DNA from: Candidatus Nomurabacteria bacterium
GTDB taxonomy: Bacteria; Patescibacteriota; WWE3; UBA101185; UBA10185
Length of the DNA: 64,000 nt
Assembly (NCBI GenBank): GCA_020631855.1
Contig: JACKGU010000001.1
Location: forward strand, 167,601-231,600
Direction: 5' to 3'
The notes below the pieces were generated by a model. It did not search any database and was not told where the DNA came from. It worked only from the letters and a program-made list of their open reading frames with translations. The position numbers were made by a program, and so were the translations under genes. This document shows positions 1,619-63,113 of this stretch, piece by piece; positions within the stretch are counted from its first letter, which is position 1, and the number at the start of each line of letters is the position of its first letter.

Positions 1619-1622
1619 TTTA

Positions 1623-1745
1623 TTTATAATTTCGTTACTCAAACCTACTTACGCGAGCTAGTAGATATAGTTTACCCAACATCTTGAGCTCTGCAAGGCA
1701 AAGAAATTACAGTAAAACACCTGCTTCAGCTGGTGGTGGTTAATA
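1623..1745 (+). repeat. Conserved ~123-nt intergenic element, copy 1. Candidate structured sRNA or repeat family.
   Basis: It begins TTATAATTTCGTTACT, contains CTACTT..AGCTAGTAG and a CTYTGC-loop-GCAAAG hairpin, and ends CCACCTGC..GCTGGTGGTGGTTAAT. It aligns along its full length with copies at 5727, 8429 and 30918. Confidence 0.6.
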
Positions 1746-1782
1746 TCTGCACTGATCCGAAAATATATTGAAGTGTAAATTT

Positions 1783-5595: not shown

Positions 5596-5672
5596 TGGAG
5601 CCCGCTGGCAGAGTCGAACTGCCGACCTCATCCTTACCATGGATGCGCTCTAACCAACTGAGCTAAGCGGGC
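5596..5672 (-). tRNA. tRNA-Thr (anticodon GGT).
   Basis: The reverse complement is GCCCGCTTAGCTCAGTTGGTTAGAGCGCATCCATGGTAAGGATG...TTCGACTCTGCCAGCGGGCTCCA. The anticodon loop ATGGTAA sits in a CATCC/GGATG stem. Confidence 0.9.
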
Positions 5673-5726
5673 GCTGTCAACTACTATACAATCTAATCCC
5701 ATATTTTTCCACTTTTTGTTTGTAGT

Positions 5727-5850
5727 TTTATAATCTCGTTACTTTAATCTGCTTGTGCTATCTAGTAGATGCGGTTTACTTAGGATGCTCGGCTTTGCAG
5801 CGCAAAGAAATTACAGTAAGCCGCCTGCGTAAGCTGATGGCGGTTGATTA
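5727..5850 (+). repeat. Conserved ~123-nt intergenic element, copy 2.
   Basis: TTATAATCTCGTTACT...GGCTTTGCAGCGCAAAGAAATTACAGTAAGCCGCCTGCGTAAGCTGATGGCGGTTGATT. Its terminal hairpin uses CCGCC/GGCGG where the other copies have CCACC/GGTGG, which is a compensatory change. Confidence 0.6.
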
Positions 5851-5928
5851 GGCGGCCTCTTTACACCTTTTAGCCATAACTGAAGTTCTTGACCCAATCT
5901 AATAGTATTTGCTGCAGTCTTTGGTCGT

Positions 5929-7056
5929 TTGATTATTTCTCACGGTTTGCTAAAATGCGGACACCGCAAGACTAGTAAAATGTTAATAACAGGGTTTTTA
6001 ACACAGAAACATATAACAAAGCTAAAAAAACTTATTTTTAGCGAGGAGGAGAAATTTTTAGTAAATAAAATTGCTCATTTTTCAATCCGACTAGGGCAAA
6101 CCTCAATAATCACTGCAGTTATAAAATCTCTTGAGGTTGGAATGACCTTTTTACTATATGTATTTTTAAACAAAGTGCGTTTATTGGGACTCTCTGCTCT
6201 GTACCCTCTATTTTTTTTATATGTGGCAGTCTCTGTGCTCGCATTTTTTTTGAGAACCGTTGTTTTTGGCTACTATTCTAACGCTTATAGTCGCTTGATA
6301 GGTGCAGTTTTGGACAACTTGATCTCGTTTTTACTGGATGACTACAGAGTTTCTTTAGCCACCGTGTCGGCAAATTTTCCAAGCCCTAAAGATATTGCTA
6401 ATAAAATCTCTGACGCCAGTAAAAGTTTGCTTTATATTGTATCGGTGCTATCTTCGATTATCGGCTTGGTGTTAGGGTTGCTAGTCCTTCTTGTCGCCTA
6501 TTTGTTTGTTGGGGAGCCTTTTTTGATAAATGTTGTTCTTATGTCTTTGTTATTTCTTGGGGCCTTCGCAATTTACGTTAGATTCGGATCTTTATACTAT
6601 CCATCGCAGAAAGCCTTCATGTCTTTAGTGGATAAATTCGACATTGATTTTAGCGGTACTCGGCCTTTGTTAATTCGTACAAACCTGAATTTATACCCTA
6701 AAGAGCTTAATAAGGCCCTTGAAGATACGGTGCGTGTCACTACCAAAATTAATTTAATTTCCAATGCTACCGCCTATATAGGTCCGATGTTGTTGGTTTT
6801 ATCCTTTTTTATACCCGCTCTTTCGCAGGATCTCAGCCATTATATAATTGTTGCCCTGTTCGTTGTTTCTAACACATTTGGGCATTCTGGCATTGTGAGT
6901 CACTACTATGCGGTAAATTTGTCCCGTGAACGTTTGGTAGAGTTTGATGCCATGTTAGACACAGTTCTTGAGACAGGGGCCGAATTAACCCCCCTCAGAT
7001 ACGACGATATATCAAACCATTATTTCAAAGATAATCCCTTTAAATCTCGTATCTAA
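5929..7056 (+). CDS. ABC-exporter-type transmembrane domain protein (six helices with long cytoplasmic loops).
   Basis: Three helix pairs are separated by 60–70-aa loops, the type-I exporter topology. It lies immediately upstream of an ABC-like ATPase gene. The start is uncertain and could be at M18. Confidence 0.5.
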   Translation: MIISHGLLKCGHRKTSKMLITGFLTQKHITKLKKLIFSEEEKFLVNKIAHFSIRLGQTSIITAVIKSLEVGMTFLLYVFLNKVRLLGLSALYPLFFLYVAVSVLAFFLRTVVFGYYSNAYSRLIGAVLDNLISFLLDDYRVSLATVSANFPSPKDIANKISDASKSLLYIVSVLSSIIGLVLGLLVLLVAYLFVGEPFLINVVLMSLLFLGAFAIYVRFGSLYYPSQKAFMSLVDKFDIDFSGTRPLLIRTNLNLYPKELNKALEDTVRVTTKINLISNATAYIGPMLLVLSFFIPALSQDLSHYIIVALFVVSNTFGHSGIVSHYYAVNLSRERLVEFDAMLDTVLETGAELTPLRYDDISNHYFKDNPFKSRI

Positions 7057-7126
7057 AGAGTGTATCGATGAAAGCCAAGGTCTTGAGATAAAGTCTTTAG
7101 TTTATATTTCAGGCCGTGGCGATTCT

Positions 7127-8023
7127 ATGAAAAATGTTTATCTAGACCATCTATTTCTTGAGAAAAATAAAGTTCATTTTTTAATAGGTGATTCCGGAAT
7201 AGGAAAATCTATATTTGGCAGGCTTATTACACTCAGGTACGAAGCTTTTAAGTGTGATTTTTTGGGTATGGGGGATTGTGATTTTAGAACATTTGAAAAT
7301 TTGGACGACGGATTAAAGGAGCTTCACTTTAGTAGTATAAGAAACATTGATACTAGCTATAGAAACGCGATTGGGGCCTATTTGGCATCAGATTTTGAGT
7401 GTAGGTTCTTTTTAACGCAGCTTGTGGAAACATTAAAAAGTAAGGCCGAGGTGGCAGGCTTTTTTGATTCCAGTGTGGATTACTATGGATCTAAGACAGC
7501 CGAGATATTAAAAGTGATGGAAGGCTATGATTTTAAATTTTGTAAAGAGGATTTTCTTGGGCTATCTAAGCAAGAACTTCGTGAATTAAGAGAGTGTTTT
7601 AGATCCCGAATAGAGTGGTTCCCCTCATCTAAAATATTTGCACTTTCGGCAATTTTTGAATATATGACTTTTACACATCTAAGATCTTTTATACCTGAAG
7701 CTTCGCTGTATTTTATGGATGCGGTACTATCCGAGCCTCCTGTTTCTCAGGGGCAGAGGCGCAGGATTCTTTTGGCTCTTGATGTATTGCTTGGAGGAGC
7801 CGTGATGGTTATTGATGAGCCATTTAGCAATATTGATCTTGGGGCGTCAAAAAGCATTTTATACAAGTTAAAAAACTATAATCAGGTTAATAATTCAGTG
7901 CTGTTAGTTTTGGACCAAAAAATACATCCCGAATTACTAGAGGTGTGTCGAAGCGAAGGTAATTTAGGTAAAGTTTTAGGCTTTTCTGATGAAGGTAAGG
8001 GTCTTAAGATAGTCGAGTTGTGA
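7127..8023 (+). CDS. Degenerate ABC-type ATPase (nucleotide-binding domain) with an ~80-aa insertion.
   Basis: Walker A is GDSGIGKS at aa 21–28. The signature-like motif VSQGQRRRILLA is at aa 206–217. Walker B is VMVIDEP at aa 226–232 and the D-loop is SNIDL. The Walker A to signature distance is about 180 aa, against about 100 in canonical domains. Confidence 0.5.
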   Translation: MKNVYLDHLFLEKNKVHFLIGDSGIGKSIFGRLITLRYEAFKCDFLGMGDCDFRTFENLDDGLKELHFSSIRNIDTSYRNAIGAYLASDFECRFFLTQLVETLKSKAEVAGFFDSSVDYYGSKTAEILKVMEGYDFKFCKEDFLGLSKQELRELRECFRSRIEWFPSSKIFALSAIFEYMTFTHLRSFIPEASLYFMDAVLSEPPVSQGQRRRILLALDVLLGGAVMVIDEPFSNIDLGASKSILYKLKNYNQVNNSVLLVLDQKIHPELLEVCRSEGNLGKVLGFSDEGKGLKIVEL

Positions 8024-8124
8024 GGTGCGTAAGGATTGTGGCCGGCCAAGCCCGGGCAAGGTTTGTGTGGGCTTGTGTATAGGTCGTATTCTCTAGCGTT
8101 GTTAATCTTCGAAAAAGGTTAATT

Positions 8125-8210
8125 TGGTGCCGGGAGCAGGATTTGAACCTGCGTAGGCTTGCGCCAGCTGATTTACAGTCAGCCCCGTTTGGCCACTTCG
8201 GTATCCCGGC
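8125..8210 (-). tRNA. tRNA-Tyr (anticodon GTA).
   Basis: The reverse complement GCCGGGATACCGAAGTGGCCAAACGGGGCTGACTGTAAATCAGC...GGTTCAAATCCTGCTCCCGGCACCA has a long variable arm. The anticodon loop is CTGTAAA. Confidence 0.9.
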
Positions 8211-8283
8211 ACGTTAAGTCAGTAAGTCTGTGGCAGTAGCCTGCGACAGAACTATAGCACTTTTGCATGAGCAGAACTCTATC

Positions 8284-8358
8284 TGGAGCCAGCGGTGAGA
8301 GTCGAACTCACGACCTATCCCTTACAAGAGGATTGCTCTGCCACTGAGCTACGCTGGC
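8284..8358 (-). tRNA. tRNA-Thr (anticodon TGT).
   Basis: The reverse complement GCCAGCGTAGCTCAGTGGCAGAGCAATCCTCTTGTAAGGGATAGGTCGTGAGTTCGACTCTCACCGCTGGCTCCA is a perfect cloverleaf. Confidence 0.9.
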
Positions 8359-8428
8359 CTCTGTATGGTTTAAACCATAGTGCCTCTGCATTTTAACACA
8401 TGTTAGTTTTATGGGGAATTACTTGTTT

Positions 8429-8553
8429 TTTATAATTTCATTACTTGAAACTACTTGTGTAAGCTAGTAGATGTATTTTAACCAACATGTTGGGCTTTGC
8501 AACGTAAAGAAATTATAGTAAACCACTTGTGTAGGCCGGTGGTGGTTGATTTC
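8429..8553 (+). repeat. Conserved ~123-nt intergenic element, copy 3.
   Basis: TTATAATTTCATTACT...CTACTTGTGTAAGCTAGTAG...CCAACATGTTGG...GCTTTGCAACGTAAAGAAATTATAGTAAACCAC...GGTGGTGGTTGATT. Confidence 0.6.
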
Positions 8554-8590
8554 GGACTTTTTCTATTTATGTTGATTTATTGGCAGGATT

Positions 8591-8935
8591 TCATTTTGAG
8601 GGTTTATCAGTTTGCAAAGTTTGTATAACTTCTTCTGTTTCTTTTTCCATAATTTTAAGAAGTTTTTCTTGGCGAGCTTCTATAATCTCAATTTTCTTTT
8701 CCCAGTCGCTTTGGGCGGCATGCAGTAAAGACATCATCAAAAAGGTTAGAATGGTTGTGGCCGTATTTATGAGAAGGTGCCAAATAGCATTAAATCCTAT
8801 AATGAGCCCAGAGGGAAGCCAGATGACAACCATTAAAAGCGAAATCCCGAACCAATACGGACTGCCTACGATTTTTGATACTCTTGTTGATAGCCCTTCA
8901 AATGCTTTACGTGTTTTACTTTGTGTTTTTGGCAT
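8591..8935 (-). CDS. Small two-helix membrane protein resembling the low-affinity iron permease (Fet4-like, PF04120-type) family.
   Basis: GSPYWFGISLLMVVIWLPSGLIIGFNAIWHLLINTATTILTFLMMSLL matches the family pattern (G.P..F......W......F...W.L.INT.TTI.TF). The opposite-strand ORF 8580–8942 is low-complexity and was rejected. Confidence 0.5.
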   Translation of the reverse strand: MPKTQSKTRKAFEGLSTRVSKIVGSPYWFGISLLMVVIWLPSGLIIGFNAIWHLLINTATTILTFLMMSLLHAAQSDWEKKIEIIEARQEKLLKIMEKETEEVIQTLQTDKPSK

Positions 8936-9124
8936 TACATAAATGTTAATGTTATTTTAACGCCAAGTCAAGGTAAAAATACGTCTGTGACAATTGCGTT
9001 TATAGAAATTCAACCTTTGTACAAGCATTTTTAGTTAAATAAGGCTTTAGGCTTGTAGTTTCTACTACCAGCGCTCCTTCAGCTCATTGACAGCAGCAGT
9101 GCTGTGTGTTTTAATCTCAAAGCT

Positions 9125-10958: not shown

Positions 10959-11266
10959 GGGTCTATTTTATCATACTGAAATAGATTCTGTGCTTATACT
11001 GCTGCAAGGCCAACGTAAATACCGCCTTTATTTAAGAACATTCTTCAATGTAATAGAAGATTTTTGACTTTTGCTCATCTGATTGAGTTTAAAGCATTTT
11101 TTAAACGCTTTTTTGACAATTATTATGTTTCATGTATTCTTTTTTAAATAGAGCGAGAGATTTTTCTCTAGGTATCTGTTGAATTAGTAATTTTTGTCTG
11201 AGAATCTAATAAATCTCAGCGTTGTTATAAAGTGGTGCTTGAAAGGCCATTTATATAAAGGTAGAA

Positions 11267-13474
11267 ATGTCTAAACTTGTCATAGTAGAATCGCCTACAA
11301 AAGCAAAGACTTTATCTAAGATTTTAGATAAATCTTATGTGATAGAAGCCTCAATGGGTCATATCAGGGATTTGCCTAAAAAAGGTTTAGCAGTTGATGT
11401 AGAGCATAATTTTGAACCTAGTTATGAGGTTCCGGAAAAAGCTCAAAAAGTTGTTAATGCTTTAAAAAAGAAGTTAGCAGACACGGATGTGGTAGTGCTG
11501 GCAACAGACCCTGATAGGGAAGGGGAGGCAATAGCCTGGCATTTACAGCAGATTCTGACTTCAGTTAAAAAATACAAGACTATGAGATACGAAAGGGTGG
11601 TTTTTCACGAGCTTACACGAGATGCCGTATTAGAAGCTTTTACACACCCAAGCGAGCTTAACCTAAATTTAGTTGATGCACAGCAGGCAAGAAGAGTTTT
11701 AGATAGGCTGGTTGGCTATAAGCTGTCGCCTTTATTGTGGAAGAAAGTACGTTTTGGGCTTTCGGCCGGTAGGGTTCAGAGCGTGGCTGTAAGATTAATT
11801 GTTGAAAAAGAGAGAGAGCGTTTAGCTTTTATTCCTGAGGAATATTGGACTTTAATTTCTAATTTAGCTTTCGGGGTAGGAGAAAAAAAGCATTCTATAA
11901 AGGCGGAGCTTGAGAAAAAAGACGATAAAAAAATTACAATTGATAATCAAAAAGATGCTCAAAAAGCACAGAATGACCTTGAAAAAGCACTTTATACCCT
12001 TTCTGCAGTTGATAAAATAGAACGAAAAAGACAAGCAAACCCGCCATTTAGAACTTCGACGCTGCAGCAGGCAATGTCAAATTTATACGGTTTCACGGCA
12101 TCCAGAACAATGAGTGCCGCGCAAAAACTTTTTGAACAAGGTCTGATAACGTACCACAGAACAGATTCTTTTAATTTAGCTCCTCAATTTGTGGCCAGTG
12201 CTAGGGCGTATGTTAAAGATAATTATGGACAAGAGTATTTGCCGACTGATCCCGTTTTTTACAAAACAAAGTCAAAAAATGCCCAAGAGGCACACGAAGC
12301 CATTAGGCCTACAGATGTATTTTTACACCCTTCCAAGCTTAAAAAAACTATTGCTGAAGATGCACGAAAAGTTTATGTAACAGTTTGGCGCAGGGCGCTA
12401 GAGTGCCAGATGGCGCCGGCTATTTATGATCAAACAACTTTTAAAATAACAACCAATAACAATTATGGATTAAAAACAACCGGCTCAATAATCAAGTTTT
12501 CCGGCTGGATGGCGATTGGGGAGAAGTTGGGTTTGAAGATGTCGGGAGATGATGTAGCTCTGCCCGATATTAAAGAGGGCTCGGCTTTAGATTTAGTTTC
12601 TGTTGAATCAACTCAGCACTTTACGCAGCCTCCGGCACGCTATTCTGATGCCACTTTAATTAAAAAAATGGAAGAACTGGGTATCGGCAGGCCTTCCACC
12701 TACGCACCAACACTAAGTACGATACAAAGACGCGGATACGTTGAAAAAGAGGGTAAATACTACAAACCAAAGCCCGTTGCATTAGTAGTTACTGATTTAT
12801 TGGTTGGTAATTTCCCTAATATTGCCGGTTATGATTTTACGGCTGAAATGGAAAACGAGCTGGATTTAATAGCTGAGGGTGAAAAAAAATGGGTCCCGGT
12901 TGTTAAAGCCTTTTACGAACCTTTTGAAAAACAGGTTGAAGAAAAAGATAAGACATTAAGTAAGCACGACATTACAAATTTGGGAGAAACTGATGAAAAA
13001 TGCCCTGAATGCGGAAAGACTTTGATAATTAAACTTGGAAAATTTGGCACTTTTTTAAGTTGTTCCGGTTATCCCGAATGCGAGTATGCCAGGCCAATTG
13101 AAGGCTCGTCTTCGGAAAACGAGAACGGAGAGACTGTTGATTATGGTAAGTGCACAGTTTGCGAAGATGGTATTTTTGTATTAAAACAAGGGCGTTTTGG
13201 CAAATTTTTAGCTTGTTCGAATTATCCAAAATGTAAAACAACAAAGCCTTTCTTGGAAAAAATTGGCATGCATTGCCCCGATTGTAGCGATGGGGAGGTT
13301 ATCGTGAAAAAAGCCAAGGGCCGTTCTTTTTATGGATGCAGTAATTACCCAGAGTGCAAGTACGCCAGTTGGAAAAACCCTTTGCAAAAGGATGCGAAAG
13401 ATCGAAGCACGCAGGATTCTTCTTTAGTTGAGATTGAGTCTGATGTTGCTGTTGATGAGTCAGAAGAAAGCTAA
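11267..13474 (+). CDS. topA: DNA topoisomerase I with C-terminal C4 zinc ribbons.
   Basis: It has a Toprim N-terminus (LVIVESPTKAKT), the catalytic region TYHRTDS, and repeated CxxC...CxxC ribbons (CPECGK..., CTVCEDG..., CPDCSDG...). Confidence 0.9.
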   Translation: MSKLVIVESPTKAKTLSKILDKSYVIEASMGHIRDLPKKGLAVDVEHNFEPSYEVPEKAQKVVNALKKKLADTDVVVLATDPDREGEAIAWHLQQILTSVKKYKTMRYERVVFHELTRDAVLEAFTHPSELNLNLVDAQQARRVLDRLVGYKLSPLLWKKVRFGLSAGRVQSVAVRLIVEKERERLAFIPEEYWTLISNLAFGVGEKKHSIKAELEKKDDKKITIDNQKDAQKAQNDLEKALYTLSAVDKIERKRQANPPFRTSTLQQAMSNLYGFTASRTMSAAQKLFEQGLITYHRTDSFNLAPQFVASARAYVKDNYGQEYLPTDPVFYKTKSKNAQEAHEAIRPTDVFLHPSKLKKTIAEDARKVYVTVWRRALECQMAPAIYDQTTFKITTNNNYGLKTTGSIIKFSGWMAIGEKLGLKMSGDDVALPDIKEGSALDLVSVESTQHFTQPPARYSDATLIKKMEELGIGRPSTYAPTLSTIQRRGYVEKEGKYYKPKPVALVVTDLLVGNFPNIAGYDFTAEMENELDLIAEGEKKWVPVVKAFYEPFEKQVEEKDKTLSKHDITNLGETDEKCPECGKTLIIKLGKFGTFLSCSGYPECEYARPIEGSSSENENGETVDYGKCTVCEDGIFVLKQGRFGKFLACSNYPKCKTTKPFLEKIGMHCPDCSDGEVIVKKAKGRSFYGCSNYPECKYASWKNPLQKDAKDRSTQDSSLVEIESDVAVDESEES

Positions 13475-25435: not shown

Positions 25436-27433
25436 CTAGTTTACTTGCCACCTCGTGTTGGTGGGTTTAAATAAACTTTTCAATTGTACTAAGTATTTAG
25501 GCTCGTACGTAAAGTTCTCTGACGGGGTAATTTCGTTATTTGTGCCTTGTAGGGTGCGTTGGAAATCTATTGTTTCTGCAACATAAAAACCTTTAAGATT
25601 TAAGGTAGCTGTTGTATTAACAATATCATACGCGGTGTATATTGTGCCGTTAGTGATTATAGCTGCAGTGAGATCCGTGACCGTTCTTCGTATTAGCACA
25701 TCCCCGCTAACAACAAACAGAAGTGCTGATTCATTGCGTATGTTCAGGTTAGTGCTAATTGTGAGATCTCCGTTTATGAAAATAACTTGGTTGAAGGTTG
25801 CTGTACTGTGGTTGTTGGGGACCCTTGAACTGCTAAGTGTGTAGCTCCCGTTTCGTACAAAAACCCCTGAAGTAGTTGGTAGATTGGTGGTGGCGCCCAT
25901 CGAGGTTTTAGTGTCTATTGTGTTGTTGTAAATTTCTTCGTAGGAAGTATGGTAAGCTTGAGAATTTCTAATGTACCAGTCTTGGGTTGAGGTAAAAAAA
26001 TCAATCCCGTATCCCGCCACTTCTACAAGAGCATCTGTATTAGGTAATTCGGGCTCTGCCAGCATGTCAATGTTGTTATTGGATTTTACTGCCCCATTTC
26101 CCCTAAGTTTTATCCAGGGACCGTTTATACAGTAGTTTTTAGTTGTGGCATTTCCCGCCATGTCTTGGGCATAGAATTTAACGGTTTTACATATTCTCCA
26201 GGTTGAGTTACAGAAGTTAGTGTGTTGGGTTTGTAGATATGCATCTGAGTCTTCGTCGGCTAAAACCCCATATTCTAAATCCGCAAAACCTCCTGCTATC
26301 CAGGGCGTGTTACATCTTTCCAAATCCGTATATACCCCATAAGGGCTGGTAGTATTTGTTACATACTGATATTTGTTAACTTCTGTTGATAATCCCGATA
26401 CGAAATCACTAACGTTGGTGAAAACATATAGATGGTGATCGCTGGGCCCACCTACTTGTCTAAAAGCCCCTGAGTCGTGCCAGTTGGATGGGGGCGTCTG
26501 GTCTACTTTGAAGGTTGTACAGTTTTTTACCGGTTCGTTGCAAGAGTAGGTTTCGGTGTTACCTTGGTTGTCTACGCTGTAGTACTGTATGGTGTGTAAT
26601 ACGCTGTCGCTGCCAACAGTAAGACTTGTGCTGGTGTCTTGAATCGAAGAGTTGATATTCGTACCGTCAATATATAGCGCGCCAGGACCTTCGAGCCCTA
26701 TTTCTAGATAAACCCCCTTAGTACTAATGTTTGGAATCGTAAAATTAAGTGATTTTCTAATCCACCCTGTAGTTCCGGAAATTACGGAAGTTCTAGCAAT
26801 TTCGTATGTTGAATTATCGTTCTTTACACCCATAATTTTTACGTATGCATTTCCTTCCGCATTATCAACTTTTAGCCAAGCAGAAGCGCTCATGCTGTCG
26901 TAAGGGGTCGCAGATGCGTAGGCAGAAAAATTTGATATTGCATGCCATGTTCCGCCTGTAGTTTCTAATAAAGCTGAAGAAACTTCATATCCTGGGGCAT
27001 AGTCTTTAACGTATTGCGACGCCTGAACCTCAGGATCGTCCACAGACAACTCCCAAGACTCGATTCCTGTATTTGTTGCACCCGGTGTTTCAAAAGATGA
27101 GTTTTGTATTAAATTTTGTGTATCACTAAAAGTAGTTGTTTGCCATGACCCGTTATTGAGCTTGTAGTTTATAGATTTGATTCCACTTAGGGTATCTGAC
27201 GCCGTAAGTTTTATGTTTACCGGAGTGGTGTACCAGCCGTTATCTCCATTCGGCGTGCTTGGTGTGAGCTCTATGGTTGTTATGGGCGGGGTGTTGTCTA
27301 ACTCTTCTGCCATCACAGAAGACCTTGTCGGCTTTTCATTCAAGATAGAATTTATTGTCAGGATAAAGATTGAGCATAGAGTAATAAACTTTTCAAATTT
27401 TTTGAGGTCGTGTTGAATATACGAGTTGGGCAT
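25436..27433 (-). CDS. Large secreted or surface protein (665 aa) with an N-terminal signal anchor.
   Basis: The N-terminus has a hydrophobic segment (FITLCSIFILTINSIL). The rest is S/T/N-rich and beta-rich with no catalytic motif. Confidence 0.55.
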   Translation of the reverse strand: MPNSYIQHDLKKFEKFITLCSIFILTINSILNEKPTRSSVMAEELDNTPPITTIELTPSTPNGDNGWYTTPVNIKLTASDTLSGIKSINYKLNNGSWQTTTFSDTQNLIQNSSFETPGATNTGIESWELSVDDPEVQASQYVKDYAPGYEVSSALLETTGGTWHAISNFSAYASATPYDSMSASAWLKVDNAEGNAYVKIMGVKNDNSTYEIARTSVISGTTGWIRKSLNFTIPNISTKGVYLEIGLEGPGALYIDGTNINSSIQDTSTSLTVGSDSVLHTIQYYSVDNQGNTETYSCNEPVKNCTTFKVDQTPPSNWHDSGAFRQVGGPSDHHLYVFTNVSDFVSGLSTEVNKYQYVTNTTSPYGVYTDLERCNTPWIAGGFADLEYGVLADEDSDAYLQTQHTNFCNSTWRICKTVKFYAQDMAGNATTKNYCINGPWIKLRGNGAVKSNNNIDMLAEPELPNTDALVEVAGYGIDFFTSTQDWYIRNSQAYHTSYEEIYNNTIDTKTSMGATTNLPTTSGVFVRNGSYTLSSSRVPNNHSTATFNQVIFINGDLTISTNLNIRNESALLFVVSGDVLIRRTVTDLTAAIITNGTIYTAYDIVNTTATLNLKGFYVAETIDFQRTLQGTNNEITPSENFTYEPKYLVQLKSLFKPTNTRWQVN

Positions 27434-29534: not shown

Positions 29535-30917
29535 ATGGATATTGTTCATAGATCGCGTCGGTTGGCAGCAGGCAGGGCAGGGAAGGAGTCTTTCTCCGGA
29601 CCTGTTGTGTATTGGATGAGTAGAGACCAGCGGGTGGGGGGCAACTGGGCCCTGTTATTTGCTCAGAAAATAGCCCTGGAAGCTCGCAAGCCTTTATTGG
29701 TGGTGTTTTGTCTTGTAGACTCGCATTTGACTTCTCAGCGAGGCGATAGGAACTATTCTTATATGCTTGGCGGACTGTCGCTGGTTCGAGAAGATCTTGC
29801 AGACCTAAATATACCCTTTATTATCCTAAATGGAGAGCCTCCCCAGAAATTACTGCAGTTTGTCGAGAAGTTCAGCGTTTCTGCTTTAATAAGCGATTTT
29901 TCCCCTATCAGAGAAGGGAGGGAGTGGCGAAATGGTGTAGCAAAGAAGATTAATTGCTCTTTTTACGAAGTTGACACACATAACATTGTTCCCGCATGGG
30001 TGACGTCGGACAAACAGGAATACTCAGCAAGAACCATAAGAAGCAAGCTTGTCAAAAAGCTGCCAGACTATCTTGTACCATTTAAGGTTGTACAAAGGCA
30101 GAATAGGGAAGTTACCGAAGACTTCCTAACTTTGATACCGAATGAGATTGGTTTTACAAATAAAATATTAAGTGTGAAATCTTACGAAGGTTTAAGTGCA
30201 GTTTCTCCCGAGAGGTTATTACAGGAATTTATAGACTTGAAATTAGACTCATACTCTAGGTCTAGAAACAACCCTTTAGTAGATGGTACCTCTAATCTGT
30301 CAGCCGCACTTCATTTCGGCCATATCTCATCTCAAGGTGTAATTCTAAAGATTATAGAGGAGTTTGGAAAAACGAACAAATATGATGTTCAAAAGTATCT
30401 TGAAAACCCCAAGGGTAACTTTTTCGATGAAATTATAGTGAGAAAGGAGCTGGCGGATAATTTTTGCTTATATAATAAAAACTATGACAATTATCTCGGC
30501 TTTCCCAATTGGGCGCAAAAATCTCTGAACGCGCACCGTGGCGATAAACGAGATACAGTTTATACTATAAGGCAGCTGGAGCAGGCTGAAACACACGATG
30601 ATCTTTGGAATGCGGCTCAGGTTCAGATGGTTTCGACAGGAAAAATGCATGGATATTTGAGAATGTATTGGGCAAAAAAAATTCTCGAGTGGAGCTCGTC
30701 TCCGGAAGAGGCTATTATTTCGTCTATCTATTTAAACGATAAATATGAGCTAGATGGAAGAGATCCAAATGGTTATGCCGGCATTGCGTGGTCGATCGGG
30801 GGACTGCATGATAGGCCTTGGTTCGACCGGCCGATTTTCGGACAAGTAAGATACATGAGTTATAGTGGAATGAAAAGAAAGTTCGATGTTGAATCCTTTG
30901 TAAAGCTTTATGTTTGA
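29535..30917 (+). CDS. phr: Deoxyribodipyrimidine photolyase (class II-like).
   Basis: VVYWMSRDQRVGGNWAL is the hallmark of class II photolyases. The C-terminal FAD-binding region is SAALHFGHIS...W..L. The start at M17 avoids overlap with the divergent upstream gene. Confidence 0.75.
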   Translation: MDIVHRSRRLAAGRAGKESFSGPVVYWMSRDQRVGGNWALLFAQKIALEARKPLLVVFCLVDSHLTSQRGDRNYSYMLGGLSLVREDLADLNIPFIILNGEPPQKLLQFVEKFSVSALISDFSPIREGREWRNGVAKKINCSFYEVDTHNIVPAWVTSDKQEYSARTIRSKLVKKLPDYLVPFKVVQRQNREVTEDFLTLIPNEIGFTNKILSVKSYEGLSAVSPERLLQEFIDLKLDSYSRSRNNPLVDGTSNLSAALHFGHISSQGVILKIIEEFGKTNKYDVQKYLENPKGNFFDEIIVRKELADNFCLYNKNYDNYLGFPNWAQKSLNAHRGDKRDTVYTIRQLEQAETHDDLWNAAQVQMVSTGKMHGYLRMYWAKKILEWSSSPEEAIISSIYLNDKYELDGRDPNGYAGIAWSIGGLHDRPWFDRPIFGQVRYMSYSGMKRKFDVESFVKLYV

Positions 30918-31043
30918 AATCAACCACCACCAGCTTATGCAGGTGGTTTGCTGTAATTTCTTTGCACTGCAAAGCACAACGTGTTGGGCAAACTACACCG
31001 ACTAGCTTACGCAAGTAGTATTAAGTAACGAAACTATAAAACT
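30918..31043 (-). repeat. Conserved ~123-nt intergenic element, copy 4, in inverted orientation.
   Basis: The reverse complement reads TTTATAGTTTCGTTACT...CTACTTGCGTAAGCTAGT...GCTTTGCAGTGCAAAGAAATTACAGCAAACCACCTGCATAAGCTGGTGGTGGTTGATTT. It abuts the photolyase stop codon. Confidence 0.6.
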
Positions 31044-37095: not shown

Positions 37096-37129
37096 TTGCT
37101 CGATCTTTTCGCAAGATAGATGATTTATG

Positions 37130-37166
37130 GGGGCCCCGATCTATGATCGGGGCCCCTCAATTTTTC
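37130..37166 (+). terminator. Rho-independent terminator after rpsR.
   Basis: GGGGCCCCGATC-TAT-GATCGGGGCCCC is a perfect 12-bp stem. It is followed by TCAATTTTTC. Confidence 0.75.
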
Positions 37167-37210
37167 TTGATTTGCTTTCAACACACAGCGTCAAATGTTA
37201 TTATTTTTAC

Positions 37211-38236
37211 ATGCCCGTTTTGTCATTCTACGAAGGCTACTCTGAGCTGACATTTGTATATTCTGAATCCGATAAATCCAAGGTGGGGAACGAGTTGTTG
37301 GAGCTTGACGCTAAGCCGGAGATCTTTAAGTTGCCCTTCGTTTACAGCGCAAATCTTTATTCCTGCTCGTTTTCAAAAGAGCAGTTTTATAAGGAAGTTT
37401 TTTCTTTGGTTTATAGTCAGTTGGGAATTACAAAAGACCAACTACCCGGTCTAGAATTTTACGCTTCCGGTTATATTAAGGTGCCTGATTCTCTTCCTCT
37501 TAAACCGAAAAAGTCCTTTTGCGTATCCGACTTTATACACGAGCCATATTTATTTGTAGGTTCGGATTTTCTAATCCAACAAGGCTGCTTTACTTCTCTT
37601 TTGCCCGTGTCCTATTTGACTCAGTACGCAAACTTCTATTCTAATTACAGTATCTATCCGGGCATGAAACTAACAGAGCCTAGAGACATTGTTTTAACAG
37701 ACCAGCTTGTAAGAGATTCTATGTATTTCTCTTCCTTATCTTCTTCTCTAAACTTGAAACCGAAAAAACCTGTAACAAAAAAGGCTGTTTTCACAGGCGA
37801 GAGGCTTTCCAACTACGAGGAAAACAAGGCCCTTTCGTTGTTACTTATGCTTGATTTGTTGATATATCCTGGTATGTATCAACTACAGCTTGATAAATCA
37901 AACCTTTTGCCGGCACTTTTTGCGTTAGATATTACCAATTTCGGCCTACTTTCAATAGGTTCCGCAATAGTATCCCCGGGTTATAACGAGGTGTTATTTA
38001 AATCTGAAGCCGCAAGCCAGCAATTTTTTGAAATTTCGGAAGATTCAATTTTTATATTGCCTCTGGATGCCGAAGAGCAGGGGGTTGTGGCGGTTAAATC
38101 GGAGTTAGGAACTATGGAATATGAAGTTAAGGGCGGCGAGGTGGGTTTGGTGTTTGACGCTCGTAGGCGAGATATGGGGCCGGTTTATAAAGATGTGTAT
38201 ATTAACATGATTGAACAAAATTTATTGAGAATATAA
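37211..38236 (+). CDS. Hypothetical protein (342 aa).
   Basis: The ORF starts after the terminator. The longer ORF-track start at 37127 lies inside the terminator stem. No motif was recognised. Confidence 0.5.
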   Translation: MPVLSFYEGYSELTFVYSESDKSKVGNELLELDAKPEIFKLPFVYSANLYSCSFSKEQFYKEVFSLVYSQLGITKDQLPGLEFYASGYIKVPDSLPLKPKKSFCVSDFIHEPYLFVGSDFLIQQGCFTSLLPVSYLTQYANFYSNYSIYPGMKLTEPRDIVLTDQLVRDSMYFSSLSSSLNLKPKKPVTKKAVFTGERLSNYEENKALSLLLMLDLLIYPGMYQLQLDKSNLLPALFALDITNFGLLSIGSAIVSPGYNEVLFKSEAASQQFFEISEDSIFILPLDAEEQGVVAVKSELGTMEYEVKGGEVGLVFDARRRDMGPVYKDVYINMIEQNLLRI

Positions 38237-38237
38237 T

Positions 38238-39230
38238 ATGGCTTATTACATACCTGTATACAGAAAAATGAACCTTCACAGAGAAAGCTTAGTAAGAAGA
38301 GAACTTCCTATTGAAGGTGATTTGATAGTGAAGGTGGGGGATTCGGTTTTGCCTTTTACGAAGATCGGCCGTGCAACCATATCGAAAGATTTTCTGGTTC
38401 TTCCTCCTAAAATAAAAATTCAGAGGTCAATGTTGCCGAAACCATTAATTTACGAAGGCGAGGTGCTCGGTAGAGCCGGCTTTAGGAGTTTTAAAGCCCC
38501 GTTCAATGGCTATTTCGAAGAAGATTCTATTAACGGCCTTGTTTACAAGAGAGAGAAGCAGGATTATTGGATGTTGGCCGGTGTTTGGGGGGTAGTTAGT
38601 GAGGTCGTTGGTGGCCGAAGTGTCACTATTAAAGCCCAAGTTATTGATATAAATTTTTCTGCCGCTTGCGGCACAGACCATATGGCCGAATTGATAGTTT
38701 TTCCAAACCCGTCAAAGCTTTTGGATTTAGAATATTTACAAAATTTTTCAAAAGGAATTAAGGGCAAGATCGTATATGTTGGTGATTTTTTACGTAAAGA
38801 GCTGGTACTCAAGGCAATTGAACTAAAGGTAGGCGCGTTGATTGGGGGCAGTATAGAGAAAGATATTTTTAACTTGGCGAAAAGCAGGGGTTTAGGAGTT
38901 GGTATAACGACCGGATTTGGCCAGCTACAAACACCAAGCAAAGTTTTTGATTTTCTTAAGACAGTCTCCAATCGACACGTTTTCATAGATGTTTCGGATG
39001 GCAAATTAACTATTCCAATTCCGTCCGAATTCAATACCTCCTCTTTTGCAGAGAATGGAGAATCTATTTGCGAGGTTAAAAAAGAGGTTCCTGTGTTAGT
39101 TTTGCAGAGCCCATACTTTGGAAGAGAGGGAAAAGTAGACGATATACAGAATGATAAAATTTATGTTAAACTCAACGAGTCAGAAGAGGTACACGAGATT
39201 AATAATTCCAACCTTCTGGCCCTCTTATAA
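38238..39230 (+). CDS. Hypothetical protein (330 aa) with N-terminal barrel-sandwich-like segments.
   Basis: It is separated by 1 nt from the upstream ORF. EGDLIVKVGDSVLPFTKIGRA resembles a lipoyl/hybrid-barrel motif. No catalytic motif was found. Confidence 0.5.
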   Translation: MAYYIPVYRKMNLHRESLVRRELPIEGDLIVKVGDSVLPFTKIGRATISKDFLVLPPKIKIQRSMLPKPLIYEGEVLGRAGFRSFKAPFNGYFEEDSINGLVYKREKQDYWMLAGVWGVVSEVVGGRSVTIKAQVIDINFSAACGTDHMAELIVFPNPSKLLDLEYLQNFSKGIKGKIVYVGDFLRKELVLKAIELKVGALIGGSIEKDIFNLAKSRGLGVGITTGFGQLQTPSKVFDFLKTVSNRHVFIDVSDGKLTIPIPSEFNTSSFAENGESICEVKKEVPVLVLQSPYFGREGKVDDIQNDKIYVKLNESEEVHEINNSNLLALL

Positions 39231-43110: not shown

Positions 43111-44928
43111 TTATTTGTTCAACCTAATTACTATCTTTCCAAGATTTCTGTCTTCAACTATGTAGAAAATTCCTTGCCTGGGTCTTGCGGATCTGCCCAC
43201 TATATGGGTGCCGGAAAATTCTGCGGTTCTTTGGGTCTTGTCTGTTTTGTTTACTACAACCATCAACTCCCCCCGCCCCGGTCTATCAGGTTCTGGAGTA
43301 TCTTTTATTTTCTTAGCTGTCTGTTGAGAAAAAACTACCACAGTACCGTCGAGATCGTAAAAGAATTTCTCTAGGGTGACTTGCGCCTCTCCAGATTCTC
43401 CTGTTCTTACAAAGCTAGCTTTCATAAATACCTCACGGTGTACCCCACAGAAGCTTGTTTCTCCTACGTGGATTCCCAATCTATTATGTGAGAAGGGGGT
43501 TTGTCTTCCTGTAATTTTAGTAGTAGCCAGATAAGTAACATCTTCGATTTCGGTTAGGAGATATTTTTTAGTTCGTCTTCCGCATAACCCCTCTATTGAA
43601 AGCCTTTGATCTACAGCCTTGTACAGCAGTAGCTCTCTAGCCTTTAACATGCCGGCGAGTAGAAATTGTTGCTCGCTATTCCCCATTTGTTGCGGGCTGT
43701 GTTTTTGTTGTAGGTCTTGTATGGTTTTATCAAGTTCTTGCAAAAAAATTTGACGAGCGGAGACGTAACTTGGTATAAGTACTCTGGCAATTGTATCGAG
43801 TGGCTCGCTCCTTCTGGGGCCTTCCGGTAACTGAAAATTTTTATGATTCTGTTGTTGTAAAATAGCTGGTTCGGTGAATAGGCTTCCAAGCCCTGCGATC
43901 ACGTTCGCAAATCTCTCCAGCACCCGTGTTTGTTCATTAACTCCATCTTCGCAAAATCTCATTATTATGGGCAGTTTACTATGTACTAGTTCGTGTATAA
44001 ATTCTTTGAGTTCTTGGTGAAGTTTCTCTCTCGGTTTTTTCCAGAGATCCACTATCGCCCCATGGGCCATTCCTGCAAAGAAACCCATATTTGTTTGTAA
44101 ACCGGCATCGTCAATAATTTTTTTAGTCGCTATAGCATTTATTGCCATTACAAGATTTCTAAGCTCTATCCCGAATACCGTTTCTGTAAAAATAACTTCC
44201 GGTTCTAAACTTTCTTCTTTTTCTATTTTTATTTTTGCAATAGCTTCCACAGGGGCGACTCTTTTTATTGGCGTGTGTGGAAGTGCTGAAGTTCGTGCCA
44301 AACTAAAACCTAAGGCAGCAGTTGCCAACGAGAATCTGAATAAGAATTCTCTTCTACCTATTGTATTCGTAGCGCAGTAAATTGGGGTTGGTATATTTGT
44401 TGCAGATAAGTCGTCATTTTTTTTTATTTCAATTAAATCTGTTCCTGCTAAGATAGCTAGTAGCAATAATTCTGTGTTTCTCCAGGGACCCATATCGCCA
44501 CCTCCTTCAGCAGCGATTCTTGCACCTTGTTTACTAAGTCCCTCGTAATAAAGCTGGGCAGCCAGGCCATCTATTCTGGCATCAAAAGCACATATTGCGC
44601 CGCCATTACGATAAAGCTCGCGAAGAAGTTCCTCGTGCTTCGTACGTTCTCTATGTGTCGATCCGTATCCGATGTTTTCTCTTCTGATTTGTGCCAGAGC
44701 ACTCCAAGCTCTCACAGTGTCTCTGAGGCCCATTCTACGTATGGTTTCTAGTTGGTTGGTTCTAAGAATAGATCCAAGAGAATATAATTCCAATTCTCCG
44801 CAAAGAAGAGAATTTATGGGATTTTCTGGATCTATGTCTAATTCCCTTAGCAATGCTGCGGTTACAGCATGATTCCAGAATTTATAATTGCAGGGTGGTT
44901 CATTTCCTGATCTTTTTTCATTAGACAT
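43111..44928 (-). CDS. Hypothetical HExxH-motif protein (605 aa) with an internal twin-arginine-like motif; GC-rich.
   Basis: HELVH at aa 312–316 is followed by Glu at +12, +16 and +22, which is a gluzincin-like arrangement. [25 protein letters not shown] at aa 190–214 resembles a Tat signal or a transmembrane anchor. Local GC is about 45–50%. Confidence 0.5.
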
Positions 44929-53014: not shown

Positions 53015-55558
53015 TTGTTTTGTCGAAAAGTCCGATCCACATCACCTAAAAACATGTTTGAATTGTTATACGTATTAGTGCCCATACTTACTGTTGTAGG
53101 TATTGTATATGTCCTTTTTTTTAATCGTAGAGTCTCGAAAGGCTATATAGTTGCCGATTCGGTTTTTCCCGATTTTAAGCTACTTGAGATTCAGGTTCCC
53201 AAGAACGAAGATGCGTCGAAGGATTCCGCAATCTCTTCTTTATCGGCCGAACATTTATTTGCAGCTCTGCACGGAATACTAAAAGAAGAATCAAATATTC
53301 AAGAGCACGTATCTTTGGAGATAAAAGGTGATAAAGAAGGTATTAAGTTCTACGTTGGTGCCCCTGCAAGTATTTTAAAATACATCGAGAGCCAAATTTA
53401 TGCCCAATACCCCCAGGCTCATATTAGTGTTTACAACGGCCATAACTATTTAGGCGATCGCACAGGTATTTTTGAGGTCGGATCTATGAGCTTGGAAAAA
53501 GATTTCATTTTTCCAATAAGGGTTTTTAGGGATTTTGAGATAGATCCTCTTGCTAACATTGCTTCAACACTCTCTGAAATTAAAGAAGATGATCAAATAA
53601 TTATTCAAACGCTTTTTAAACCTGTGCCCGATGGTTGGCAAGAGAAGGGCTATAAATATTTGGCGGCTGTTACAGGAGGAAATTCTGTAGAATCTGACCC
53701 TTTTTTAAAAGACATTTCTCGCAGTTTATTTACGGAAATATTAAGTATATTAAAAAATATTCCTGTTATTATGATTCGTGGCTATGCAGATGAACCACAG
53801 GGCCAATTTAAGGTAAGAGAAGGAGGCGGGGTAAGGCTCTCGGCTTTTCAAGAGTTAGAGATTAAGGCTGTTGAGCACAAACTCACGCACATGGGCTTTG
53901 CGGTTCAAATGCGCGTGTACATAGCCTCGGCGACTTCCGGAAGAATAGATGACCTGAAACGTTCGGTTGGCTCTGCGTATAAACAGTTCAGCATGACAGG
54001 TCTTAACAGCATGAACCTGACATTGGAGTCGAACAGGCGCTCGGCATTAGACGACTTTAGAGTAAGGCAATTCGATGCTTATAAGTCTTTTATTCTAAAT
54101 TCCGAAGAGTTGGCGACTATTTTTCATCTCCCGTCAGCCTCTTCGGATCTTCCAAGTATTTCGTGGGTATATTCCAGAAAATCAGAACCGCCTTCAGTTT
54201 TGCCCACCGAAGATTGTACTTACATTGGCGATACTGTGTACCGCGGAAAAAAAGTTCGTTTTGGCCTTTCTAATGGAGACGACAGGCTTCGCCATATGTA
54301 TCTTATTGGTAAATCAGGTACCGGAAAATCTACTTTGATGGAGGCGATGGTTTTGCAGGATATTATAAGAGGGGAGGGGGTCTGTTTACTTGATCCTCAC
54401 GGCGAGACTATTGATAAGGTTTTGGATCGTATTCCCGATCATAGAATTGAAGATGTAGTCGTTGTTGACCCTTCTGATACGGAAATGCCCGTCGGGATAA
54501 ATTTATTAGAGTTGTCGCATCCCGATCAAAAAAATTTGATGGCTTCAGGGTTGGTTTCTGCAATTAGGCATCACTTTGATTATTCTTGGGGGCCCAGGCT
54601 GGAGTATTTATTAAATTACTCACTTTTAACATTGTTGGAGGTTCCCGGAACATCTATGCTTGGCGTGACAAGGTTATTGGAGGATGTAAACTATCAAAAA
54701 TATATTTTACACAATGTAAAAGATCCCGTTATTCAAGCATTTTGGGACAAGGAATACAAGGAAATGAGGGGCAATGCTAAGTTAGTTACTGAGGCTATAG
54801 CGCCAATTCAGAACAAAGTAAACCGCTTTCTATCTTCAAGCACAATTAGAAATATTCTTGTTCAGAGAAGATCCACTATTGATATTTGGGACATAATGAA
54901 TTCGGGCAAAATTTTGTTGATAAACTTATCAAAAGGAAAGATAGGAGAAGACAATGCCAATCTCTTAGGGGCTTTGTTGGTTTCTCGAATTCAGTTTTAC
55001 GCTTTACAAAGAGCAAATATAACTTACGACAAGCGGAAGCCCTTTTATCTTTATGTAGACGAGTTTCAAAATTTTGCCACCGGCAGCTTTGAGTCAATTC
55101 TATCTGAATCGAGAAAATATAAGTTAGGTTTATACCTGACTCATCAGTACACCGCACAGCTTCCCGAGGATCTCCAGAAGGCGGTTTTCGGTAATGTTGG
55201 TACAATTGCGGCTTTTTCACTTGGAGCCCCGGATGCTCGCATATTACAAAGTGAGTTCGCCCCGTATTTTGACTCCGAGGACATCATTTCTCTAGAGAGA
55301 TTTAATATATACATTAAACTTATGATTGATGGCATGACTTCTTTGCCGTTTTCAGCTAAAATATTATTGCCATGGGAAGAAGAAGGTCTCATACCAAAGA
55401 CAGGCAATAGAGAGAAAATTCTTGAGCTCAGTCGACGTAAGTACGGGGTGCCGAGAGATCGCGTAGAGTCAGCTGTCAATAAATGGATTGAAAGGCCTTT
55501 TGACAAAGGCATGGCAATAGCTGAACAAATTAAGAGAGGTGGTACAAATGGACAATAG
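53015..55558 (+). CDS. Membrane-anchored P-loop ATPase of the HerA/FtsK/VirB4 (DUF87-like) clade (847 aa).
   Basis: A transmembrane helix is at aa 17–36 (LLYVLVPILTVVGIVYVLFF). About 400 aa of N-terminal domain has unknown function. Walker A is LIGKSGTGKST and is followed by VCLLDPHGE, which resembles the HerA DPHGEY motif. Walker B is YLYVDEFQNF. The start could be M14. Confidence 0.6.
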   Translation: MFCRKVRSTSPKNMFELLYVLVPILTVVGIVYVLFFNRRVSKGYIVADSVFPDFKLLEIQVPKNEDASKDSAISSLSAEHLFAALHGILKEESNIQEHVSLEIKGDKEGIKFYVGAPASILKYIESQIYAQYPQAHISVYNGHNYLGDRTGIFEVGSMSLEKDFIFPIRVFRDFEIDPLANIASTLSEIKEDDQIIIQTLFKPVPDGWQEKGYKYLAAVTGGNSVESDPFLKDISRSLFTEILSILKNIPVIMIRGYADEPQGQFKVREGGGVRLSAFQELEIKAVEHKLTHMGFAVQMRVYIASATSGRIDDLKRSVGSAYKQFSMTGLNSMNLTLESNRRSALDDFRVRQFDAYKSFILNSEELATIFHLPSASSDLPSISWVYSRKSEPPSVLPTEDCTYIGDTVYRGKKVRFGLSNGDDRLRHMYLIGKSGTGKSTLMEAMVLQDIIRGEGVCLLDPHGETIDKVLDRIPDHRIEDVVVVDPSDTEMPVGINLLELSHPDQKNLMASGLVSAIRHHFDYSWGPRLEYLLNYSLLTLLEVPGTSMLGVTRLLEDVNYQKYILHNVKDPVIQAFWDKEYKEMRGNAKLVTEAIAPIQNKVNRFLSSSTIRNILVQRRSTIDIWDIMNSGKILLINLSKGKIGEDNANLLGALLVSRIQFYALQRANITYDKRKPFYLYVDEFQNFATGSFESILSESRKYKLGLYLTHQYTAQLPEDLQKAVFGNVGTIAAFSLGAPDARILQSEFAPYFDSEDIISLERFNIYIKLMIDGMTSLPFSAKILLPWEEEGLIPKTGNREKILELSRRKYGVPRDRVESAVNKWIERPFDKGMAIAEQIKRGGTNGQ

Positions 55559-59502: not shown

Positions 59503-60308
59503 ATTATTGTATTGTGGATAATTCGGGTGGTCGTTTGTAGTTTTTGTTTGAGGGCCTGTTTTAAAAAATATAAATGAATAATAAATAGATCTATTTATAT
59601 ATAAAATGGTCAATTATTGTTTTCAATATTACTTTTAGATCTTTACACTCCCCATTTATCGTTTGTCTGGGTGCGTTAATAGTGCTTTTTACTTAAACAA
59701 GGTTTAACTAGATACCCTACGTCGTTAAACATACATTATACGACGTTACTCAAAGGTCTCAACTTGTGCCCTTTCTTAGCTTTTTAACGGTGTTATTTCT
59801 ACTAAATTCATTTTTAAATTTTTGCATTAATAAATACCATCGTAACTTTCCTATTACAATTTCCTTTTTAATTTTTATATTTTATTTTAAATTACGTTAT
59901 ACTTATTTATATTATTTTCCCCGCTTTTTTGCCGCCTTTGTTTTATCTACCCCCTCTTCCTAGTTTGCTTGCTGTTTTCTTACTTTTCGCGTAAAAGTAT
60001 ATCTTTATTTCTGCAACGGGAAGACCCCGTGCTTATCTCGTGGATGAAAGCGCGAGCTTTCAACCGCAAAAAAGAAGAGTCCGGAGACTTTAGTTCGCGG
60101 AGTCTTTATTCTTGGCTTTGTTAAGGCCTAAAATGGCTGTTTGGGCCTATTTTGACTTCTAAGGCATTTTTCCAAAAAAGTTGAGTTGCATATCTTTGAA
60201 TCTGGCTTCCTTGAGGATTCGGGCCAGGGAGATGGTGCTCATTGCAATATTGTTCGCTCTTAGTTAAGTATATTTCTGCTAATGTCGTTAAAGTGTTAAA
60301 ATTAGATA

Positions 60309-63024: not shown

Positions 63025-63113
63025 ATATTGACCTCGTTTTTTAAGATAAGCGGATTTTACCACAAATTACTATAAGGTGCAATTTATCTATCAACTTGAC
63101 TTTGAAGGCCGCT

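Follow-up and report, generated by a model that had tools for sequence, protein, structure and literature searches.

A dispersed 117-nt repeat in a Candidatus Nomurabacteria genome is most likely a relic of PATE type

What is the nature of a sequence of little more than one hundred nucleotides that recurs four times between the genes of a member of the CPR/Patescibacteria? The question arises from a 64,000-nt stretch of a Candidatus Nomurabacteria genome (contig JACKGU010000001.1, positions 167,601 to 231,600; hereafter the window), the sequence of which is 100% identical to assembly GCA_020631795.1, contig JACKGV010000006.1. A preliminary description had interpreted the four copies as a candidate family of structured small RNAs, pointing to a compensatory base change in the terminal hairpin of one of them. 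We find that the four repeats form a real family, that they most likely represent a relic of PATE type, which is a kind of element already known, and that a small RNA family is unlikely.

With a profile built from the four copies, nhmmer detects full copies at 1622-1749 (plus strand), 5725-5852 (plus), 8428-8556 (plus) and 30915-31042 (minus), with E-values from 1e-39 to 1e-42. Repeat finding in the window reported the same family, which confirms four related copies at these loci. The four-copy profile has no further match below E = 1 in the window, and a 14-copy profile recovers the same set of four. A truncated fifth head had been proposed at 59737-59756; its letters are present, but they find no match with nhmmer even when E-values as high as 100 are allowed, or as high as 1 for the 14-copy model. 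The copies in the window are mutually 74-81% identical over a 117-nt core (72-86% by BLAST). Among all dispersed copies the identity of the core is 67-89%, while it is 93-99% inside tandem pairs. The sequence motifs said to be shared by every copy are present but less uniform than had been claimed: copy 4 starts with TTATAGT, the inverted pair of copy 2 reads CTGCTT...ATCTAGTAG, copies 1 and 3 carry CTCTGC/GTAAAG variants of the hairpin motif, and copy 1 ends with TTAAT.

At least 10 additional copies occur elsewhere in the same organism, and the designation as a repeat family is borne out by dispersed copies both in the window and on other contigs. Within 10 kb beyond the right end of the window (L111) there are three more copies, one single and one head-to-tail pair, all oriented like copies 1-3. 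This amounts to seven copies per ~84 kb of contiguous sequence, or about one per 12 kb. With a specific 22-base pattern, at least six more full copies and three fragments were found on other contigs, which come from metagenomes of two samples, one of them also containing the window's own sequence. The element is the sole sequence that these contigs have in common with the window. Contig L094 has one copy directly after a tRNA-Val gene, L095 has a head-to-tail pair and a 72-nt left fragment, L098 and L103 have one copy at the same locus, and L101 has two full copies and two fragments. The genes around the repeat copies are unrelated housekeeping genes. All samples represent essentially one clone (99.96-100% identical), and the closest homologue of fmt shows 50% identity. 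Among the GTDB representative genomes, a pattern scan found no true copy, only two chance matches in Flavobacterium, and three pattern scans of viral contigs found no real copy. Plasmid, phage and viral collections showed no sequence similarity (including distant blastn searches against plasmids and phages), and the element has no sequence match to any catalogued IS.

Twelve of the 14 copies have a core of exactly 117 nt, and a reading frame that stays open in all 14 does not exist. Among independent copies, similarity ends exactly 5 nt to the left of AATTTCG and immediately to the right of TTGAT. The five bases on the left are TTTAT in 10 of 13 independent insertions (CTTAT in two, TTTGT in one). 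The 3' tip is TTGAT in 10 of the 14 copies, the others having TTAAT, CTGAT or, in two cases, a degenerate tip. The element has no terminal inverted repeats: when its first 25 nt are set against the last 25 in reverse complement, only four positions match. Target duplication is absent, with TTTAT on the left and 3' flanks of unrelated sequence.

In the consensus (slashes mark the element boundaries), the left part reads TTTAT / AATTTCGTTACTT-AAAA, followed by a first imperfect palindrome, IPL (CTACT T GC GTAA GC T AGTAG, that is CTACT-T-GCGTAAGC-T-AGTAG). The middle consists, in this order, of ATGTAGTTTA CCCAACATGTTGGG CTTTGCAACGCAAAG AAATTACAG-CAAA. The right part begins with a second imperfect palindrome, IPR (CCACC T GC GTAA GC T GGTGG, that is CCACC-T-GCGTAAGC-T-GGTGG), and ends with TGG TTGAT /. 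IPL and IPR are identical at 16 of 20 positions, are in direct orientation and lie 72 nt apart throughout. They differ at four positions, which form two compensated pairs (T-A to C-G), and the internal T.T mismatch is kept in both. The distance to the left end is 17 nt for IPL, and that to the right end is 8 nt for IPR. By consensus, the tetranucleotide 5' of the hairpin is AAAA on the left and CAAA on the right.

In copy 1, the target pentanucleotide TTTAT (C_L/TAM), which is flanking sequence outside the mobile unit, is at 1623..1627 and the 117-nt element at 1628..1744 of the plus strand, with IPL at 1645-1664, IPR at 1717-1736 and the right tip TTAAT at 1740-1744. The guide-like tetranucleotides of this copy are AAAC (1641-1644) and TAAA (1713-1716). 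Copy 2 (plus strand) has its TTTAT at 5727..5731 and the element at 5732..5848 (IPL 5749-5768, IPR 5821-5840, tip TTGAT 5844-5848). The corresponding positions in copy 3 (plus strand) are 8429..8433 and 8434..8550 (IPL 8451-8470, IPR 8523-8542, tip TTGAT 8546-8550). Copy 4 is read on the minus strand, with TTTAT at 31036..31040 and the element at 30919..31035 (IPL 30999-31018, IPR 30927-30946); its tip TTGAT (30919-30923) is 1 nt away from the stop codon of a photolyase gene (30915-30917). The TTTAT target and the first AAT of the element together create a TATAAT hexamer at nearly every insertion. In the window, this hexamer is at 1625-1630, 5729-5734, 8431-8436 and, as TATAGT in copy 4, at 31033-31038 (minus). 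It could be a hybrid -10 box, perhaps the promoter of an ancestral transposase.

This anatomy matches that of the ends of IS200/IS605 elements. These insert 3' of a T-rich tetra- or pentanucleotide that is left outside the element, and they have neither inverted repeats nor target duplications (PMC4227781, PMC2806898). Documented targets are TTGAT, ATTAT and TTTAT (PMC4227781; TTGAT also in PMC2806898). The transposase TnpA binds subterminal imperfect palindromes of the top strand, the feet of which are 19 nt (left) and 10 nt (right) from the cleavage sites in IS608 (PMC3201880). In IS608, guide and cleavage sequences pair as TTAC/AAAG and TCAA/GAAT (PMC5934647, PMC3201880). The element described here shares with IS608 from Helicobacter pylori and ISDra2 from Deinococcus radiodurans the top-strand imperfect palindromes with an unpaired T at both ends (PMC3201880, PMC5934647, PMC2806898), comparable hairpin-foot distances (19/10 nt in IS608, 17/8 nt here) and a T-rich target (TTAC in IS608, TTGAT in ISDra2, TTTAT here). 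In the consensus, the four bases 5' of each foot could pair with the cleavage motif, as the guides of those elements do. In contrast to IS608 and ISDra2, there is no tnpA or tnpB gene between the ends, and the target TTTAT and the hairpin sequences differ.

The guide rule of IS608 can be transferred to the element. In the IS608 scheme, the first base of the motif pairs with the second base of the guide, the second with the first and the fourth with the fourth. By this scheme the motif (T)TTAT calls for AAAA and the motif (T)TGAT for CAAA; the consensus has both. The single position that separates the left motif from the right one (T versus G) is mirrored in the guides (A versus C). The right-side guide pairs are kept in 93% of cells, and copy 1 has changed on both sides (TTAAT with TAAA). 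Support is weak on the left side, where 71-86% of cells keep the pairs and the A/T-rich context makes chance pairing frequent. The top strand is located on the G-rich strand in ~8 of 11 copies, the direction expected of a top strand that prefers the lagging-strand template. This bias is only suggestive; the contigs are short and give weak skew.

Three independent tandem pairs (on L095, L101 and L111) have a junction that is exactly ...TTGAT/AATTTCG.... The second unit of each pair is devoid of its own TTTAT; it comes after TTGAT, which is mismatched to its own left guide. This joint equals the RE-LE junction of the circular intermediate known from IS608 and ISDra2.

Each copy is probably a non-autonomous miniature of the IS200/IS605 family (PATE), a gene-less unit in which a left end is fused to a right end. 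The assignment to the PATEs is made by architecture; from it, we infer mobility, a transposase acting in trans and a single-strand mechanism. PATEs from Haloquadratum walsbyi and PATE-like elements from Geobacillus stearothermophilus are likewise too small to encode any protein, lack terminal inverted repeats and target duplications, and have a conserved targeting oligonucleotide of 4-5 nt beyond the 5' end (PMC3119063, PMC10055086). Their palindromes near the termini are similar to each other and lie at asymmetric distances (PMC3119063), the 5' distance being longer than the 3' distance, as is the case here (PMC3119063, PMC10055086). The element differs from the described PATEs by the lack of any sequence similarity, by its host, a member of the CPR/Patescibacteria with a very small genome, and by the three exact RE-LE tandem dimers. 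A further difference is that the ~130 kb examined of this organism yielded no IS605-type parent and no transposase with ends that match.

A mechanism modelled on IS608 and ISDra2 would run as follows. TnpA, a Y1 HUH enzyme supplied in trans, would bind IPL and IPR on the single-stranded top strand. The guide tetranucleotides AAAA and CAAA would pair with the cleavage motifs TTTAT (left flank) and TTGAT (right tip), and the top strand would be cut after each motif, resulting in a single-stranded circle with an RE-LE junction. This circle would then re-insert 3' of another TTTAT without target duplication. A length of 117 nt may be sufficient, since ~40 nt of each ISDra2 end are enough in vitro (PMC2806898). 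The family looks old in this genome and is probably inactive, as the dispersed copies are 67-89% identical and show neutral decay. Neutral decay is what the substitutions suggest. Private substitutions, which occur in one copy only, are evenly spread (dispersion p=0.94; coldest 13-nt window P=0.27), while differences shared by subfamilies avoid the start of the left end and the stretch 5' of IPR (P<=0.001). Even private mutations together with block-avoiding shared ones fit constrained master elements that decay neutrally after insertion, and are at odds with paralogous RNA genes each under selection.

Several points count against the assignment to the PATEs. Some have appeared above: the weakly supported guide pairs of the left side, the TTGAT in front of the second tandem units, and the lack of any match in plasmid, phage and viral collections. 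The strict conservation of length at ~80% identity exceeds what simple neutral decay would lead one to expect. In addition, neither a Y1 transposase (Y1_Tnp) nor an OrfB/TnpB domain was found in the ~130 kb examined (Pfam searches of the window ORFs of at least 70 aa, the flanks, and the concatenated ORFs of L094, L095, L098 and L101), and no full-length IS with matching ends was seen there.

The missing cognate TnpA in these ~130 kb is the starting point for the alternative that the repeat has moved by another route, its likeness to IS200/IS605 being partly coincidental. Another HUH or REP/RAYT-like enzyme might be responsible, or a site-specific recombinase acting at a TT(T/G)ATAA core, or recombination and slippage alone. 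A gene for a Xer-type tyrosine recombinase is indeed present at 60309-61328. Tandem mates are 93-99% identical, as expected of local duplication, and since head and tail have TTKAT in common, the tandem units can formally be phased in more than one way. However, a 5-nt target is, to our knowledge, too short for tyrosine recombinases, and the left motif is consistently TTTAT and the right one TTGAT, so that they can represent neither duplicated targets nor identical att cores. In contrast to REP/BIME elements, no hairpin is found by itself or in an inverted pair. The asymmetric hairpin distances and the guide rule point specifically to IS200/IS605 (PMC3201880). We therefore consider a different route of movement unlikely.

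The position of the copies relative to genes brings up a second alternative, a cis-acting element exapted by the host, whatever its origin: a 3'-end hairpin cassette that stabilizes or terminates transcripts, or one that insulates neighbouring genes. Five of 11 sites are between convergent genes, and a co-oriented gene precedes seven of the 11. Copy 1, copy 4 and the L101 copies L101a and L101b abut stop codons within 0-4 nt. As had been described, copies 1 and 4 are located between convergent genes, copy 1 between those for a HAD hydrolase and a cyt-b5-like protein, copy 4 between those for a DUF11/LPXTG protein and the photolyase. The strict length conservation would also fit an exapted cassette. 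Four sites, however, are in divergent (promoter) regions, none of the hairpins is followed by a T-run on either strand, and the private mutations carry no signal of purifying selection. Moreover, a seemingly safe intergenic placement also results from selection against harmful insertions. Exaptation is therefore an improbable explanation.

A third alternative asks if the element is really an inert relic. Each copy might fire a transcript of ~110 nt from the hybrid TATAAT through the hairpins into the right flank. Such a transcript might serve as a minimal omega-RNA-like guide with which a TnpB-type nuclease works in trans, or the element might be a domesticated sRNA or 3'-end module. It would be maintained at exactly 117 nt in a CPR genome that is streamlined and may no longer encode the transposase. 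We regard this proposal as unlikely.

The reading from which the question arose, that of multi-copy genes for small regulatory RNAs, has slender prospects. In this reading, each copy would run from a promoter of its own, in which the TATAAT of the head would be the -10 box, to the 3' hairpin. Multi-copy sRNA families such as the tandem PrrF, LhrC and Qrr likewise consist of intergenic paralogs of ~120 nt, and tandem sRNA paralogs occur in other bacteria. TATAAT or a one-off variant heads nearly every copy. Four hairpins can be drawn, and in the plausible helices of the 14-copy alignment 87% of cells pair, compared to 29-47% when the partners are slid. G-U pairs are more common on the written strand, which folds slightly better than its complement in 9-10 of the 14 copies.

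Selection for pairing is nevertheless unsupported. When 14 copies were aligned, every measure of covariation was reached by 391-481 of 500 column shuffles. Changes on both sides were found twice in 36 pairs, which 470 of 500 shuffles equal, and the RNAalifold covariation term of the consensus is -0.05 kcal/mol. The compensatory pair reported for copy 2 (CCGCC with GGCGG) is there in its letters, but it requires the 3' arm to be shifted by 3 nt (to the GGCGG at columns 117-121 of alignment A4), and other copies contradict this: the shifted register is broken in L111b/c, L101a and L094, which keep the unshifted one. Beyond this single pair there is no covariation, which the preliminary description had itself named as the mark of a plain REP/MITE-like DNA repeat. 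Alternative helices (the start of the left end with GAAATT; TGTAGTTT with AAATTACA) were rejected, being invariant or broken without compensation.

Comparison to Rfam also failed to assign a family. The whole window was searched at gathering score and two copies at E up to 10. Only tRNAs exceeded the gathering score, and the best match at a copy was STnc350, which scored 19.7 bits (E=0.19) where the cutoff is 60. Nor did consensus scans call shared signals for transcription. A consensus-based promoter scan, from which CPR promoters may differ, found a -35/-10 pair only at copy 2, and there the -35-like hexamer belongs to unique flanking DNA. A consensus scan for terminator-like sites found none at any copy on either strand. 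The would-be -10 box is TGTAGT in L094 and GATAAT in the second tandem units. Private mutations are uniform over stems and loops. In contrast to the sRNA families, fragments, one chimeric copy and exact head-to-tail fusions are present. A family of RNA genes would also leave unexplained that one hairpin duplicates the other, and that guide and cleavage motifs are complementary. An sRNA family is therefore highly unlikely.

Several known classes of repeats can be set aside. REP/BIME elements with their RAYT (TnpA-REP) are similar in being high-copy extragenic hairpins with a Y1 HUH enzyme (a presumed one here) and GTAG/CTAC at the hairpin foot, but REPs are single palindromes of 20-40 nt, often in inverted pairs, whereas here two direct hairpins are held at a fixed 72-nt spacing in a 117-nt unit, and a fuzzy search found the hairpin solely within full elements, neither solitary nor as an inverted pair. 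Classical MITEs, ERIC and Correia elements are likewise ~100-150 nt long, intergenic, high-copy and foldable, but have the terminal inverted repeats and target duplications that are absent here; attC sites were ruled out on anatomy.

The most tangible present role of the family is that of dispersed repeats that break assemblies; the copies may also mediate rearrangements. The contigs of several public short-read assemblies stop inside the element (L106, L109, L113 and the contig ends of L101), and the repeat limits the assembly of this genome. The MAGs GCA_020631795.1 and GCA_020427845.1 are identical until 33 nt into an element copy just past the end of the window (L111 7156 versus L112 7156). 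Past this point, they lead into separate parts of the genome by way of another copy, one in which 10 nt are deleted. Either copies have recombined with each other, or the join is chimeric.

The genomes of CPR/Patescibacteria are small and as a rule considered repeat-poor; here, a gene-less derivative of a single-strand transposon would be found about once per 12 kb. The case also calls for caution in RNA discovery, as transposon-end hairpins with strand-specific G-T pairs can mimic structured sRNAs. Should the lineage possess a TnpA or TnpB that matches, the left and right ends, the target TTTAT and the guide positions are ready for testing.

Some observations concern the surroundings of the copies. 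The two tRNA-Thr genes that had been noted near copies 2 and 3 occupy 5596-5672 and 8284-8358 of the minus strand, at distances of 54 and 70 nt (57 and 73 had been stated). Copies 2 and 3 are direct repeats that flank a 2.6-kb segment (window 5732-8550). This segment contains a 375-aa ORF, a 298-aa AAA_21/ABC-like ATPase (weak PADLOC match to mad3/AriA), tRNA-Tyr and tRNA-Thr(tgt). It interrupts what we take to be a usually single Thr-Tyr...Thr-Trp tRNA cluster. The segment may represent an island, or else a composite with a left end at one side and a right end at the other. The 375-aa ORF beside copy 2 was considered as a TnpB or defence gene and rejected, having no Pfam or PADLOC match. Downstream of copy 3, two ORFs overlap on opposite strands (8580-8942, plus; 8591-8935, minus). 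Only the one on the minus strand has a family match (low-affinity iron permease), and the plus-strand ORF is probably spurious.

Further ORFs in the window that have no Pfam or PADLOC match are at 25436-27433 (minus, 665 aa), 37127-39230 (plus, 369+330 aa), 43111-44928 (minus, 605 aa) and 61366-63063 (minus, 565 aa). An 847-aa DUF87/TrwB-like ATPase that resembles the coupling protein of type IV secretion is encoded at 53015-55558 (plus), and small unknown genes adjoin it. On L101, an RNase H (RVT_3) gene and a gene weakly similar to Pol-beta nucleotidyltransferases (11203-12525, minus) end 1 nt before a copy of the element. Behind this copy lies a 35-nt piece of another one.
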